From Escherichia coli (lineage in GTDB: Bacteria; Pseudomonadota; Gammaproteobacteria; Enterobacterales; Enterobacteriaceae), in assembly GCF_003334785.1 (NCBI RefSeq), contig NZ_QOWV01000019.1: a stretch of 64,000 nucleotides of DNA. One strand, given 5' to 3'. Numbering within the stretch: the stretch's first letter is position 1; each line of letters starts with the position of its first letter. A program made the position numbers. Shown here one piece after another: positions 51,001-57,000 of the stretch.

Positions 51001-54000
51001 CTGCCAGAGTTCGCCGACTATAACCAGCGCATCCGTCATCCCGGTGGTTTTCACCTGATAAATGCAGCTGCTGAAAGGCGCTGGATGACGCCGTCAGGTA
51101 AGGCTAATTTCATTACCAGCAAAGGGCTGTTAGAAGATCCCTCTTCAGCGTTTAACAGTAAGCTGGTCATGGCGACAGTACGCAGCCACGATCAGTACAA
51201 CACGACGATTTATGGTATGGATGATCGCTATCGAGGGGTATTCGGTCAACGAGATGTGGTCTTTATGAGTGCTAAACAAGCTAAAATTTGCCGTGTAAAA
51301 AACGGCGAAAGAGTTAATCTTATTGCGCTTACGCCAGACGGTAAGCGCAGCTCACGCCGCATGGATAGATTAAAAGTGGTCATTTACCCTATGGCTGACC
51401 GCTCACTGGTGACCTATTTTCCAGAATCGAATCACATGCTAACACTTGATAACCACGATCCATTAAGTGGCATTCCTGGCTATAAAAGTATTCCGGTTGA
51501 ATTAGAACCATCAAATTAATGCCTCTTCTCATTTCTTCTGCTGTCATCCGCACAGCAGAAGAATTCCTCATTGACTATTATTTCGCAATTTGCTCACATG
51601 GATTAAATTAAACTACATACTATAAGATATAAACTTCTGCCTACAGCTGTAAGAAACTCCGCTCAGTACTGAAGCACCAGTCCTATTTCCTCTTTTCTCC
51701 AGCCTGTTATATTAAGCATACTGATTAACGATTTTTAACGTTATCCGCTAAATAAACATATTTGAAATGCATGCGACCACAGTGAAAAACAAAATCACGC
51801 AAAGAGACAACTATAAAGAAATCATGTCTGCAATTGTGGTTGTCTTATTACTGACACTTACGTTGATAGCCATTTTTTCGGCAATTGATCAGCTGAGTAT
51901 TTCAGAAATGGGTCGCATTGCAAGAGATCTTACACATTTCATTATCAATAGTTTGCAAGGCTGAAAACAAACAGCAAATTATAAATATGAAATGTTAAAA
52001 AAGTATCGATAAAAACTTTATTGTTTTAAGGAGATAAAATGTCGCTCGTTTGTTCTGTTATATTTATTCATCATGCCTTCAACGCTAACATTTTAGATAA
52101 AGATTACGCCTTCTCTGACGGCGAGATCCTGATGGTAGATAACGCTGTTCGTACGCATTTTGAACCTTATGAGCGGCATTTTAAAGAGATCGGATTTACT
52201 GAAAATACCATTAAAAAATATCTACAATGCACTAACATCCAGACAGTGACGGTGCCTGTTCCTGCGAAGTTTTTACGTGCTTCAAATGTACCGACTGGAT
52301 TGCTTAATGAAATGATTGCTTATCTCAACTCGGAAGAACGCAATCATCATAATTTTTCAGAACTTTTGCTTTTTTCTTGCCTGTCTATTTTTGCCGCATG
52401 CAAAGGTTTCATTACACTATTAACTAACGGTGTGCTATCCGTTTCTGGGAAAGTGAGAAATATTGTCAACATGAAGCTGGCGCACCCATGGAAGCTGAAA
52501 GATATTTGTGACTGCCTGTACATCAGTGAAAGCCTGTTGAAGAAAAAACTTAAGCAAGAGCAAACGACATTCTCACAGATTCTTTTAGATGCAAGAATGC
52601 AGCACGCAAAAAATTTGATACGCGTAGAAGGTTCAGTCAATAAAATTGCCGAACAATGTGGTTATGCCAGTACATCTTATTTTATTTATGCGTTCCGCAA
52701 ACATTTCGGCAACAGTCCGAAGAGAGTTTCTAAGGAGTACCGTTGTCAAAGTCACACGGGTATGAATACGGGCAACACGATGAATGCTTTAGCTATTTGA
52801 TTATTTGCTAACGAGTAGTCAACCACACACGCTGCGTAAGAATTAAATGGGGCAGCCATTCCCTGCCCCGCGTTGTTTTTAGGCGATATATTTATTGAAA
52901 TAAATAAGTGACATCCATCACATATTTATGCACTTGCATAACCTGTTGCATGATTATTTATGATCTCAATTCTGCATTTTGTCAGTAAAATGCAATAATT
53001 TATTAAATATCAATAAATTAGTTGTTTATCGGCGAGAAATTACTTAATAGAACAGAAAGTAATGTCAACGCTTTATGGACTGTTTTTTCCCTTTTTTTAG
53101 CTAAATCTGCTATCTCTTTATGTGACTAACTTCACTTACATCCACTTATTTCTCTTCGTAAAATTACTTTGGAATTAAGTACAATAAGAAGAGGAACATT
53201 TATGAAGTCTGCATTAAAGAAAAGTGTCGTAAGTACCTCGATATCTTTGATACTGGCATCTGGTATGGCTGCATTTGCTGCTCATGCGGCAGATGATGTA
53301 AAGCTGAAAGCAACCAAAACAAACGTTGCTTTCTCAGACTTTACGCCGACAGAATACAGTACCAAAGGAAAGCCAAATATTATCGTACTGACCATGGATG
53401 ATCTTGGTTATGGACAACTTCCTTTTGATAAGGGATCTTTTGACCCAAAAACAATGGAAAATCGTGAAGTTGTCGATACCTACAAAATAGGGATAGATAA
53501 AGCCATTGAAGCTGCACAAAAATCAACGCCGACGCTCCTTTCATTAATGGATGAAGGCGTACGTTTTACTAACGGCTATGTGGCACACGGTGTTTCCGGC
53601 CCCTCCCGCGCCGCAATAATGACCGGTCGAGCTCCCGCCCGCTTTGGTGTCTATTCCAATACCGATGCTCAGGATGGTATTCCGCTAACAGAAACTTTCT
53701 TGCCTGAATTATTCCAGAATCATGGTTATTACACTGCAGCAGTAGGTAAATGGCACTTGTCAAAAATCAGTAATGTGCCGGTACCGGAAGATAAACAAAC
53801 GCGTGACTATCATGACAACTTCACCACATTTTCTGCGGAAGAATGGCAACCTCAAAACCGTGGCTTTGATTACTTTATGGGATTCCACGCTGCAGGAACG
53901 GCATATTACAACTCCCCTTCACTGTTCAAAAATCGTGAACGTGTCCCCGCAAAAGGTTATATCAGCGATCAGTTAACCGATGAGGCAATTGGCGTTGTTG

Positions 54001-57000
54001 ATCGTGCCAAAACACTTGACCAGCCTTTTATGCTTTACCTGGCTTATAATGCTCCGCACCTGCCAAATGATAATCCTGCACCGGATCAATATCAGAAGCA
54101 ATTTAATACCGGTAGTCAAACAGCAGATAACTACTACGCTTCCGTTTATTCTGTTGATCAGGGTGTAAAACGCATTCTCGAACAACTGAAGAAAAACGGA
54201 CAGTATGACAATACAATTATTCTCTTTACCTCCGATAATGGTGCGGTTATCGATGGTCCTCTGCCGCTGAACGGGGCGCAAAAAGGCTATAAGAGTCAGA
54301 CCTATCCTGGCGGTACTCACACCCCAATGTTTATGTGGTGGAAAGGAAAACTTCAACCCGGTAATTATGACAAGCTGATTTCCGCAATGGATTTCTACCC
54401 GACAGCTCTTGATGCAGCCGATATCAGCATTCCAAAAGACCTTAAGCTGGATGGCGTTTCCTTGCTGCCCTGGTTGCAAGATAAGAAACAAGGCGAGCCA
54501 CATAAAAATCTGACCTGGATAACCTCTTATTCTCACTGGTTTGACGAGGAAAATATTCCATTCTGGGATAATTACCACAAATTTGTTCGCCATCAGTCAG
54601 ACGATTACCCGCATAACCCCAACACTGAGGACTTAAGCCAATTCTCTTATACGGTGAGAAATAACGATTATTCGCTTGTCTATACAGTAGAAAACAATCA
54701 GTTAGGTCTCTACAAACTGACGGATCTACAGCAAAAAGATAACCTTGCCGCCGCCAATCCGCAGGTCGTTAAAGAGATGCAAGGCGTGGTAAGAGAGTTT
54801 ATCGACAGCAGCCAGCCACCGCTTAGCGAGGTAAATCAGGAGAAGTTTAACAATATCAAGAAAGCACTAAGCGAAGCGAAATAACTAAACCTTCATGCGG
54901 CGGATTTTTCCGCCGCCTTATTGAGCGAGATAGCGATGCACGTTACAGCCAAGCCCTCCAGTTTTCAATGTAATCTCAAATGTGATTACTGTTTTTACCT
55001 TGAAAAAGAGTCGCAGTTTACTCATGAAAAATGGATGGATGACAGCACTCTGAAAGAGTTCATCAAACAATATATCGCAGCGTCTGGCAATCAGGTCTAT
55101 TTTACCTGGCAAGGCGGTGAACCCACTCTGGCTGGCCTGGATTTTTTCCGTAAAGTTATTCACTATCAACAACGCTATGCAGGCCAAAAACGTATTTTTA
55201 ATGCATTACAAACGAATGGCATTTTATTGAATAATGAATGGTGTGCCTTTCTCAAAGAACATGAATTTCTGGTTGGTATCTCGATCGATGGCCCCCAGGA
55301 GTTACATGACCGTTACAGACGCAGTAATTCAGGTAACGGTACTTTTGCAAAAGTGATAGCAGCCATCGAGCGTCTGAAATCATATCAAGTAGAGTTTAAT
55401 ACGTTAACCGTCATTAATAACGTTAATGTCCATTACCCTCTTGAGGTTTATCATTTTTTAAAATCTATCGGCAGTAAACATATGCAATTTATCGAATTGC
55501 TAGAAACCGGGACGCCGAATATTGATTTCAGTGGTCATAGTGAGAACACATTCCGTATCATTGATTTTTCTGTGCCTCCCACGGCTTATGGCAAGTTTAT
55601 GTCAACCATTTTTATGCAATGGGTTAAAAACGATGTGGGTGAAATTTTCATCCGTCAGTTTGAAAGCTTTGTCAGCCGTTTTTTGGGGAATGGGCATACC
55701 AGTTGTATTTTCCAGGAGTCCTGCAAGGATAATCTGGTTGTTGAAAGTAATGGAGATATTTACGAATGCGACCATTTTGTCTATCCACAGTACAAAATTG
55801 GAAACATTAATAAATCTGAACTCAAAACGATGAACAGTGTACAACTGACAGCGCAAAAAAAACGGATTCCAGCGAAATGTCAGCAATGTGCATATAAACC
55901 TATCTGCAATGGCGGTTGTCCTAAGCATCGTATTACTAAAGTAAACAATGAGACTGTTTCTTATTTTTGCGAAGGTTATAAAATCCTTTTTTCAACCATG
56001 GTACCTTATATGAACGCCATGGTAGAGTTAGCTAAGAACAGAGTACCGCTTTACCACATTATGGATGTTGCAAAACAAATGGAGAATAATTAATAACGCT
56101 CTCTTTTAACTCCATTCTTAGCCTCCTTCTTATGACCTTAACAAGGCACCCGACATAAATTCCTGTCGGGTGTTTCGTCATCATCATCTTCCCTTGCGAA
56201 AATCCTGGCTTACGTGGTATGCATCAGGGCATTAGCAATATCCTTGATTATCAATAGCATAACCATAACCACTGAAAATGAAATATTCCTTTATATTTCA
56301 TATTGTTAAATGATACTTAAATAAATTTCATCAGTAAATCATTGCCATAGATAATCATTGGATGGCACAATCAATTTTCGCTAATGATAACCATTCCCAT
56401 TACGCTTCGTATGTTGATAGCAAAGTATCTCTGTCTGTTGAAGCCCTTTTGGCTGCGTAAGAATAATAAAACTTCAGTGTTGTTAATCATTATTATCCTC
56501 GCCATGATCCTTGGCGTGGTTAAAATTCAGGTCTGGTTAAACGACTGGAATAATGATTTTTTCAATGCGCTAAGCCAGAAAGAAACCGATAAGCTTTGGC
56601 AGCTTGTCCTTTGGTTCCCTGCCCTGCTGGGGATCTTTGTATTAATATCCGTAAACAAAACATGGTTAATTAAACTACTGACTATTCGCTGGCGCGAATG
56701 GTTAACAGATTACTACCTTAATCGGTGGTTTGCAGATAAAAACTACTACTTCACGCAGATCTACGGCGAGCATAAAAATACAGATAACCCTGACCAACGT
56801 ATCGCTGAAGACATTCTCTTACTGATCAGCAAAACGCTCAGTCTTTCATTTGGCTTCATCCAGTCACTTAGCATGCTGATCACCTTTACCGTTATTCTTT
56901 GGGAAAGCGCGGGTACGCTCTCATTCACTGTTGGTGGAACAGAATGGAATATCCAGGGGTATATGGTCTATACCGTCGTGCTCATTGTGATCGGTGGAAC

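Follow-up and report, generated by a model that had tools for sequence, protein, structure and literature searches.

Which reaction does the ydeN-ydeM pair of Escherichia coli carry out, on which substrate, and under which conditions is it made? These questions arose from a 64,000-nucleotide stretch of the E. coli contig NZ_QOWV01000019.1 (the window), in which a reading of the sequence alone had placed a Ser-type sulfatase and a radical-SAM maturase at 53202-56093. The pair is real: its coordinates match both ORFs, and motifs and family models agree. It is an already annotated E. coli operon encoding a periplasmic serine-type sulfatase together with its own radical-SAM activating enzyme.

Identity and conservation of the locus

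53202..54884, + strand: ydeN, Ser-type S1 sulfatase precursor of 560 aa (ORF, Pfam, RefSeq, orthologue alignment, structure comparison)
54936..56093, + strand: ydeM, cytoplasmic radical-SAM/SPASM anaerobic sulfatase-maturating enzyme of 385 aa (TIGR03942, Pfam, anSMEcpe alignment)

The ydeN ORF runs from an ATG at 53202 to its end at 54884, and ydeM from an ATG at 54936 to a stop at 56093. Both genes are named in RefSeq, and their sequence and order are identical to those of ydeN (b1498) and ydeM (b1497) in E. coli K-12, without any difference. The window thus holds the same locus with the same predicted roles, namely a putative sulfatase (ydeN) and a putative anaerobic sulfatase-maturating enzyme (ydeM). 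The ydeNM region is 100% identical to that of K-12-type E. coli and was found in 5323 of 5426 complete genomes. The K-12 genes are said to have been discussed already by Benjdia et al. in 2007 (FEBS Lett 581:1009). Since RefSeq annotates both genes and they have been discussed in the literature since that year, the pair is not novel.

In comparison with E. albertii we obtained dN/dS values of 0.013 for ydeN and 0.044 for ydeM. Both genes are under strong purifying selection, and a decaying pseudogene pair is ruled out by these values and by the presence of the genes across E. coli genomes. The description of the pair as AT-rich holds, because the GC content of ydeN (44.1%) and most clearly that of ydeM (38.6%) lies below the 47.2% of the whole window; the upstream spacer has 32.2%. 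An Rfam scan of 51400-56500 returned only an isrK match on the opposite strand, which stayed below threshold (score 20 bits, gathering score 50, E 0.35), which we took as chance. 

Predicted catalytic residues and export of YdeN

YdeN matches Pfam Sulfatase PF00884 with 1e-70 over residues 58-408 and the full model length. The SGPSR signature noted in the sequence-only reading was confirmed: it occupies residues 132-136 (nt 53595-53609) and puts Ser132 (nt 53595-53597) at the formylglycine position. The extended signature S132-G-P-S-R136-AAIMTG satisfies the pattern (C/S)-x-P-x-R then xxxxTG and aligns to CGPSR of native ZgCgsA. SGPSR is kept in every orthologue checked (13/13; invariant across 14 in the alignment), and residues D66, D67, S132, R136, K183, H185, H286, D345, N346 and K364 do not vary among 14 orthologues, the most distant of which has 54% identity. 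With metal and catalytic roles assigned by homology with the established S1 numbering, these residues correspond to the predicted full catalytic set of an S1 sulfatase. The predicted fold matches S1 structures with TM values up to 0.77; the conserved active-site loops are modelled with low confidence.

The N-terminus (MKSALKK, a hydrophobic stretch, AHA/AD), which is without a twin arginine, reads as a predicted Sec-type signal peptide comprising residues 1-29. Signal-like N-termini are also present in the orthologues, and the location of YdeN is given as the periplasm (PMC10746267).

YdeM as a predicted sulfatase-maturating enzyme

Against the TIGR03942 model 'anaerobic sulfatase maturase' YdeM scored 505.5 bits (cut-off 349.45) over model positions 1-362 of 363, and it matches Pfam Radical_SAM and SPASM. 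The CNLKCDYC motif (CX3CX2C) spans residues 12-19 (nt 54969-54992). YdeM has 11 iron-sulfur cysteines (C12/16/19; C257/263/278/328; C315/318/324/345), and all of them are invariant in 12 orthologues together with D279 and GGEP. Family models and cysteines thus bear out the earlier proposal that the gene downstream of ydeN encodes a radical-SAM maturase.

The closest comparison is with anSMEcpe of Clostridium perfringens (PDB 4K36-4K39), to which YdeM aligns over residues 4-359 (4K36, E 6e-63). The cysteines of YdeM align to the anSMEcpe ligands of three [4Fe-4S] clusters, one radical-SAM and two auxiliary. Both proteins share the CX3CX2C motif, both auxiliary-cluster cysteine sets and an Asp beside C278, which we take to correspond to D277 of anSMEcpe. 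The natural partner of anSMEcpe is a Cys-type sulfatase, whereas that of YdeM is Ser-type. E. coli K-12 was reportedly unable to mature a heterologous Ser-type sulfatase unless Klebsiella atsB was co-expressed; if so, YdeM would not be expressed or not be competent in laboratory conditions. However, the opposite experience has also been described (PMC8379841).

Pairing, distribution and origin

52848..52870, + strand: intrinsic terminator of ydeO, hairpin then T-run (terminator scan; fold -17.2 kcal/mol), separating ydeO transcription from ydeN

In all 12 loci with downstream DNA, ranging from Enterobacterales to Fusobacterium, the sulfatase gene is followed by the maturase gene, so the pairing is not due to chance. 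Across the loci compared we found no shared neighbors other than the maturase; the flanks are unrelated and contain housekeeping genes (NAT, PhzF, HtpX, ThiI, FeoB, GAPDH), and a GH4-like enzyme, a ROK protein or an ABC permease stands beside the pair in single loci only. Gene neighborhood was dropped as a clue to the substrate because only the maturase is common to the loci. Low GC content, patchy distribution and differing flanks would fit an old horizontal acquisition, which is consistent with what had been suggested from the sequence.

The same reading had attached a functional meaning to the adjacency of the acid-resistance regulator ydeO. This gene (NF007407, 606 bits) indeed lies directly upstream, ending at 52800, 401 bp before ydeN, but the terminator intervenes and ydeO is not found beside the pair in any other genus compared. 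The adjacency is an Escherichia-specific accident of insertion.

Relatives of YdeN and possible substrates

That the pair has no known substrate still holds, none having been reported according to a 2024 paper (PMC10878103), and in the literature searched we found no report of biochemical activity, formylglycine formation or substrate for YdeN or YdeM. The top sequence matches of YdeN are S1_19 carrageenan galactose-4-sulfatases (E 2e-52, 182 bits, 35% identity, 19% gaps). In the profile search S1_19 reached 233 bits, compared to 139-149 bits for S1_11 (BT4656, BT3177; 5G2V, 7P24), and in the fold comparison S1_19 (TM 0.77) was followed by S1_16, with S1_11 at TM 0.63. The nearest solved relatives of YdeN are S1_19 and S1_16 galactose/GalNAc 4-O-sulfatases and not the GlcNAc-6-sulfatase proposed in print, a relation that is new here. 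The enzymes of SulfAtlas subfamily S1_19 (ZgCgsA 9HH2; Pseudoalteromonas S1_19A 6BIA/6B0J; S1_19B 6PSM) share the catalytic residues of YdeN, with the 35% identity extending over the catalytic core. They are Cys-type and marine and belong to polysaccharide utilisation loci, whereas YdeN is Ser-type, has a longer C-terminus, lacks glycoside hydrolase neighbors and carries an extra segment of ~30 residues (76-108) that is conserved in its clade and absent from S1_19.

According to a published proposal YdeN is a GlcNAc-6-O-sulfatase for mucin foraging, based on 33% similarity to BT4656 of Bacteroides thetaiotaomicron. BT4656 (5G2V) is a significant match (6e-30), and in mice fed a high-fibre diet a gut-adapted araC mutant showed a rise of ydeM along with nagABE and galP (PMC10878103). 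Nevertheless, S1_11 stays well below S1_19 and S1_16 in sequence score (108 vs 182 bits) as well as in the profile and fold comparisons, and we regard this assignment as unlikely. B. thetaiotaomicron, with anSMEbt and 28 sulfatases, resembles the predicted ydeNM case in that a radical-SAM maturase of a gut bacterium activates carbohydrate sulfatases, which serve host-glycan foraging in Bacteroides. Its sulfatases include BT4656 (S1_11) as well as BT3796/BT3057 (S1_16), the latter subfamily being among the nearer structural relatives of YdeN. In Bacteroides a single maturase serves many sulfatases, whereas ydeNM is a one-to-one cassette.

The substrate of YdeN is most likely a sulfated carbohydrate. 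As a tentative guess, drawn from 35% identity across subfamilies, it may be a 4-O-sulfate of galactose or GalNAc, carried by small oligosaccharides that enter the periplasm. A prediction from S1_19 subsite residues was dropped because the published specificity residues fall in regions where YdeN aligns unreliably. The ranking of candidates is accordingly revised, with 4-O-sulfated galactose/GalNAc ahead of GlcNAc-6-sulfate.

We also considered whether ydeNM could be a sulfur-scavenging arylsulfatase system like AtsB/AtsA of Klebsiella, using aryl sulfates as a source of sulfate under sulfur shortage. Many S1 enzymes are promiscuous on aryl sulfates, and in both systems the sulfatase is periplasmic with Ser at the formylglycine position, a radical-SAM maturase is encoded next to it, and maturation precedes Sec export (predicted for YdeN). 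Yet this role is improbable: AtsA and YdeN are not orthologues (on PRK13759, the arylsulfatase equivalog, YdeN reaches 124 bits, cut-off 481), the known regulators of ydeNM (CRP, AraC, GadX) are carbon- or acid-related, and in the literature consulted we found no link to sulfur starvation. The Klebsiella arylsulfatase, in contrast, is reportedly under sulfur and tyramine control (Murooka 1990). A further difference is the gene order, with the sulfatase first in ydeNM.

Transcriptional regulation of ydeNM

52907..52922, - strand: distal CRP site TGTGATGGATGTCACT, 287 bp upstream of the ydeN ATG; exact match, single in the window
53074..53114, no strand assigned: candidate AraC region; weak half-site matches with 3-4 mismatches in a local scan
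53121..53136, + strand: putative proximal CRP-like site TGTGACTAACTTCACT, 1 mismatch; centre ~41.5-43.5 bp upstream of the predicted start
53135..53164, + strand: candidate promoter from a scan, -35 CTTACA / -10 TAAAAT; predicted transcription start near 53171

Published data place ydeN among the most strongly down-regulated genes at pH 4.4, with a log2 change of ~-5.3 in mRNA and ribosome footprints alike (PMC10746267). From this ~40-fold fall it follows that neutral pH allows ydeN expression. Under acid stress the transcript is lowered by GadX, which binds at the ydeN promoter (PMC4918353), AraC binds upstream of ydeN only with arabinose, and deletion of araC de-represses ydeMN (PMC3738151, PMC10878103). 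YdeN protein has been found in anaerobic rumen-fluid cultures of O157. The gene behaves as a sugar-catabolism gene switched off by acid, not as a silenced acid-stress gene, and neither the silencing nor the use under acid conditions expected in the sequence-only reading was borne out. Low GC content, the location beside ydeO/safA/ydeP and the patchy phylogenetic distribution would suit two silenced genes of horizontal origin that become active in acid or through EvgS-YdeO. The acid response, repression by GadX, the protein found in rumen fluid, the terminator between ydeO and ydeN and the missing linkage to ydeO outside Escherichia all speak against it, making this explanation very improbable.

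CRP binding upstream of ydeN has been described in vivo and in vitro: TGTGATGGATGTCACT is the CRP ChIP-seq target 'ydeN' in ETEC (PMC4287617) and an in vitro CRP footprint with a Kd of 1.8 nM (PMC12871828). In the 64 kb we found only 6 CRP-like sites with at most one mismatch compared to ~2 expected, and TGTGACTAACTTCACT is one of them. E. albertii, Leminorella and C. werkmanii have a similar CRP-like site at 71-81 bp from the ATG on its upstream side, and across 6 genera neither an AAAAT.A block nor its spacing to the TGA half-site varies. The distance to the predicted start would put the proximal site in class II geometry. The Shine-Dalgarno sequence GAGG of ydeN is located at 53191-53194. 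The promoter scan yielded 8 sites versus 10 expected and the terminator scan likewise showed no excess over shuffled sequence; our proposals for the promoter and for the hairpin described below are therefore based on conservation across genera. The second CRP-like site, in its putative class II geometry, and the cross-genus -10 element are new here.

An AraC site was not located, because a consensus scan of the whole window at 3 mismatches gave 445 matches vs 438 expected, which is uninformative, and the local scan of the ydeO-ydeN spacer gave only matches with 3-4 mismatches.

Hairpins between and after the genes

54897..54916, + strand: intercistronic GC hairpin GCGGCGGA-TTTT-TCCGCCGC then CTTATTG (fold -18.7 kcal/mol, z -3.06)
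56144..56175, + strand: hairpin resembling a terminator, downstream of ydeM, with a stem of 12 bp and then TTTCGTC (centroid -18.6 kcal/mol, z -3.87)

The intercistronic hairpin was missed by the terminator scan because a proper T-run is absent. A hairpin of differing sequence is found at the same position between ydeN and ydeM in 7 proteobacterial loci, and compensatory changes affect 8 of its 9 pairs. Its structure is conserved while its sequence is not, an observation that is also new here. It may act as a partial terminator or as a 3'-end stabiliser and thereby set the YdeN:YdeM ratio.

A model for ydeNM function

We consider it highly probable that ydeN-ydeM is a self-contained two-gene cassette, in which YdeM matures YdeN, expression is CRP-dependent and carbon-catabolic, and the product is a carbohydrate sulfatase. 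By family homology, cytoplasmic YdeM with its three [4Fe-4S] clusters would oxidise Ser132 of unfolded pre-YdeN to C-alpha-formylglycine, and Sec would then export the matured precursor via its signal peptide. In the periplasm YdeN would fold around a divalent metal bound by D66, D67, D345 and N346, and the formylglycine hydrate together with R136, K183, H185, H286 and K364 would hydrolyse the sulfate ester. Transcription of ydeNM would depend on cAMP-CRP through the experimentally bound distal site and the putative proximal class II site, AraC with arabinose as well as GadX and low pH shut it off, and the intercistronic hairpin probably allows more sulfatase than maturase to be made. That YdeN instead hydrolyses another ester by means of formylglycine, e.g. 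a phosphonate monoester or phosphodiester, is extremely improbable, since in spite of a weak Pfam Phosphodiest match (3e-7), a PehA-type match (67 bits) and the known promiscuity of the alkaline-phosphatase superfamily, both matches are far under the cut-offs and the closest relatives of YdeN are all carbohydrate sulfatases.

The two-gene cassette model can be extended, although in this wider form it is doubtful: ydeNM might be a mobile self-regulating cassette with a CRP class II promoter of its own, an intercistronic attenuator of conserved structure that sets the sulfatase:maturase ratio, and a Ser-type sulfatase from the galactose/GalNAc 4-O-sulfatase lineage, which desulfates carrageenan- or chondroitin-type oligosaccharides that primary degraders set free. 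If true, this would point to a cross-feeding role for enteric and aquatic Gammaproteobacteria and Fusobacterium, one not yet assigned to E. coli.

While the identity of the genes is textbook annotation, ydeN and ydeM are part of the uncharacterised E. coli genome. The idea of acid induction is corrected by this analysis, and the promoter and attenuator model is offered in testable form. The identity of the YdeN substrate would tell whether E. coli helps to desulfate gut glycans of host or dietary origin, and would also explain why it activates recombinant Ser-type sulfatases inconsistently.

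Identity of the locus

The gene pair lies in a region of the Escherichia coli K-12 type with the order ydeP-safA-ydeO-ydeN-ydeM-yddA-yddB, and its ends are exactly the ydeN ATG (53202) and the ydeM stop codon (56093). Using 52801–56400 as a 3.6-kb query we found 100% identity to strain FORC 064 and matches with at least 80% coverage in 5323 of 5426 complete E. coli genomes. There ydeN is annotated as “sulfatase-like hydrolase/transferase” and ydeM as “anaerobic sulfatase maturase”. The literature has listed the two as putative sulfatase and putative anaerobic sulfatase-maturating enzyme (anSME) since Benjdia et al. 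2007. The pair is the already known ydeN/ydeM locus and not a new one. Its GC content is low (ydeN 44.1%, ydeM 38.6%, spacer upstream of ydeN 32.2%; window 47.2%). From the end of ydeO to the start of ydeN there are 401 bp, which contain the following features.

Features of the ydeO-ydeN spacer
52848–52870, terminator hairpin between ydeO and ydeN (terminator scan)
52907–52922, distal CRP site TGTGATGGATGTCACT (sequence match in the window)
53121–53136, candidate proximal CRP-like site TGTGACTAACTTCACT (pattern scan, at most one mismatch)
53159–53164, -10-like TAAAAT (promoter scan)

Some further observations concern the surroundings. A near-consensus CRP site, TGTGATCGTAATCACG, at 26653–26668 matches the yneE site given in PMC12871828 (Kd 0.7 nM), which confirms the window as the reverse complement of MG1655 at about 1.57–1.64 Mb. 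An antisense 40-codon ORF, “protein YneP” in RefSeq (56059–56181, minus strand), overlaps the 3’-terminal 35 nt of ydeM as well as the ydeM terminator hairpin. The complete ydeP-to-yddB order also occurs, with 99–100% protein identity to E. coli, on a contig labelled as a “Candidatus Nanosynbacter” MAG (L002, JARKOR010000108.1), almost certainly an E. coli contamination of the bin.

A Ser-type sulfatase and its maturase

All features described in the sequence-only reading are present: the SGPSR and CNLKCDYC motifs, low GC and ydeO upstream. For the 560-aa YdeN the Pfam Sulfatase match has an E-value of 1e-70, and SGPSR occupies residues 132–136. YdeM (385 aa) has CNLKCDYC at residues 12–19, Radical_SAM and SPASM domains, and a match at 6e-63 to the solved structure of the Clostridium perfringens enzyme anSMEcpe. 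On the TIGR03942 model, “anaerobic sulfatase maturase”, it reaches 505 bits, above the cut-off of 349. By domains, motifs and TIGR03942 score the molecular interpretation as Ser-type sulfatase plus radical-SAM maturase was right, and it was already known.

The 14 YdeN orthologues compared, with identity down to 54%, all keep the S1 catalytic set (D66, D67, S132, R136, K183, H185, H286, D345, N346, K364) unchanged. Across 12 orthologues of YdeM no change occurs in the three radical-SAM cysteines, the eight cysteines of the auxiliary clusters, D279 or GGEP, and the conserved cysteines line up with those that ligate the clusters in anSMEcpe. Compared with E. albertii, ydeN has a dN/dS of 0.013 and ydeM one of 0.044, with dS near saturation (~1.4–1.6) and dN tiny. 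Read from the sequence, YdeN begins with a signal peptide of the Sec type whose cleavage site is AHA/AD, while no signal peptide is found at the YdeM N-terminus. By analogy, YdeM and YdeN would work like Klebsiella AtsB and AtsA. YdeN itself is no orthologue of AtsA (124 bits, cut-off 481).

An autonomous two-gene cassette

In a search covering one genome per species, orthologues turned up in E. albertii, Leminorella, Citrobacter werkmanii, Cedecea, Mixta, Grimontia, Psychromonas, Anaerobiospirillum and Fusobacterium; the protein database added Yersinia, some Salmonella, Proteus, Aeromonas, Shewanella and Iodobacter. The sulfatase is Ser-type in all 13 orthologues, and the maturase follows 3’ on the same strand at each of the 12 loci with downstream DNA. 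Beyond the maturase no common neighbor was found across the loci compared, the flanks being unrelated housekeeping genes. Since the gene order is kept and the flanks are unrelated, ydeNM is an autonomous two-gene cassette that landed at different places, which makes its adjacency to ydeO incidental. Low GC and unrelated flanks fit the proposed horizontal acquisition and support an old origin. As a functional clue the adjacency to ydeO does not hold, with a terminator in between. Upstream of the pair in E. albertii (L003) no match to ydeO was found; there a glutamate decarboxylase gene lies directly 3’ of ydeM.

A second Ser-type variant of YdeN occurs in some E. coli (P0066; loci L018, 3847–5544, and L019, 2729–4426; 77% identity, SGPSR). 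IS110 remnants and a porin gene of the OmpC/PhoE family adjoin its gene. Since no maturase gene lies alongside, the variant would depend on a maturase acting in trans.

Structural relatives and substrate

The sole literature proposal for a YdeN substrate is GlcNAc-6-sulfate, guessed from 33% similarity to BT4656 (PMC10878103). When YdeN was compared with every solved structure, carrageenan galactose-4-sulfatases of SulfAtlas subfamily S1_19 came out on top: ZgCgsA (9HH2; E 2e-52, 35% identity over the core), Pseudoalteromonas S1_19A (6BIA/6B0J) and S1_19B (6PSM). A profile of the 14 orthologues gave the same order (S1_19 233, 221 and 209 bits; S1_16 165; S1_11 139–149). The AlphaFold model (pLDDT 74, pTM 0.82) matches S1 sulfatase structures, with Foldseek TM of 0.77 for S1_19 and 0.63 for S1_11. 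Because S1_19 ranks first by sequence, profile and fold, and characterised S1_19 enzymes remove galactose 4-sulfate (PMC6923384), we favour, with low confidence, 4-O-sulfated galactose or GalNAc as the possible substrate. YdeN shares only a modest identity with S1_19 and contains a conserved stretch of ~30 inserted residues (76–108), and its strongly conserved loops 201–206, 216–222, 236–239 and 349–358 are not placed confidently by the model.

Regulation of ydeNM

The pair had also been read as silenced and acid-induced, which published data contradict. In ribosome profiling at pH 4.4 ydeN is among the most down-regulated genes (log2 -5.31 and -5.05), as are malE, xylF and treC (PMC10746267), and GadX, which binds at its promoter, reduces the transcript under acid stress (PMC4918353). 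Upstream of ydeN, AraC binding requires arabinose (PMC3738151), and deletion of araC leads to strong expression of ydeMN, which are reported as co-transcribed (PMC10878103). CRP was bound to TGTGATGGATGTCACT upstream of ydeN in ETEC ChIP-seq (PMC4287617) and in vitro with a Kd of 1.8 nM (PMC12871828). Together these data indicate that ydeNM is expressed at neutral pH, under a catabolite-like control, and is acid-repressed, not acid-induced.

Upstream of ydeN the AraC half-site pattern TAGC-N7-TCCATA gave no more than weak matches. An exact match lies at 10101–10117 (minus strand) inside dcp (8281–10392), one of the known AraC ChIP targets (PMC3738151). A PhoB box, TGTCAAAAATCAGTAATG, inside ydeN (53758–53775, plus strand) has been reported as intragenic and without effect on ydeN RNA (PMC10294691). 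With the sulfonated azo dye FD&C Red No. 40, ydeN was the sole E. coli gene significantly induced, and its deletion did not affect reduction of the dye (PMC10653809).

CRP sites with at most one mismatch number six in the 64-kb window against about two expected, and two of the six fall into the 401-bp spacer. The center of the proximal one lies 30.5 bp 5’ of TAAAAT, a spacing that would fit class II CRP geometry with a start near 53171. This site was not found in the accessible parts of the published CRP site tables. When the 145 bp before the ATG were aligned over six Enterobacterales genera, the half-site TGA, a CTT.TTT block and AAAAT.A were kept at fixed spacing despite unrelated flanks; similar CRP-like sites lie 71–81 bp 5’ of the ATG in three other genera. 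The cassette seems to bring its promoter along.

The intercistronic hairpin

The 51-bp spacer between ydeN and ydeM folds into an 8-bp GC hairpin (54897–54916, -18.7 kcal/mol, z -3.06). Hairpins of differing sequence with a T-rich tail occupy the equivalent position at seven proteobacterial loci (the one in the window, L003 and the orthologue loci L005, L006, L007, L008 and L012), with compensatory changes in 8 of 9 consensus pairs among these seven sequences only. In Fusobacterium the hairpin is absent. It may act as a partial terminator or 3’-end stabiliser, and would then yield more of the sulfatase, the substrate of maturation, than of the maturase, its catalyst.

Our readings of the second CRP-like site and of the intercistronic hairpin, both putative, are the new details. 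What the locus still offers is the question of the YdeN substrate together with this promoter and attenuator model.
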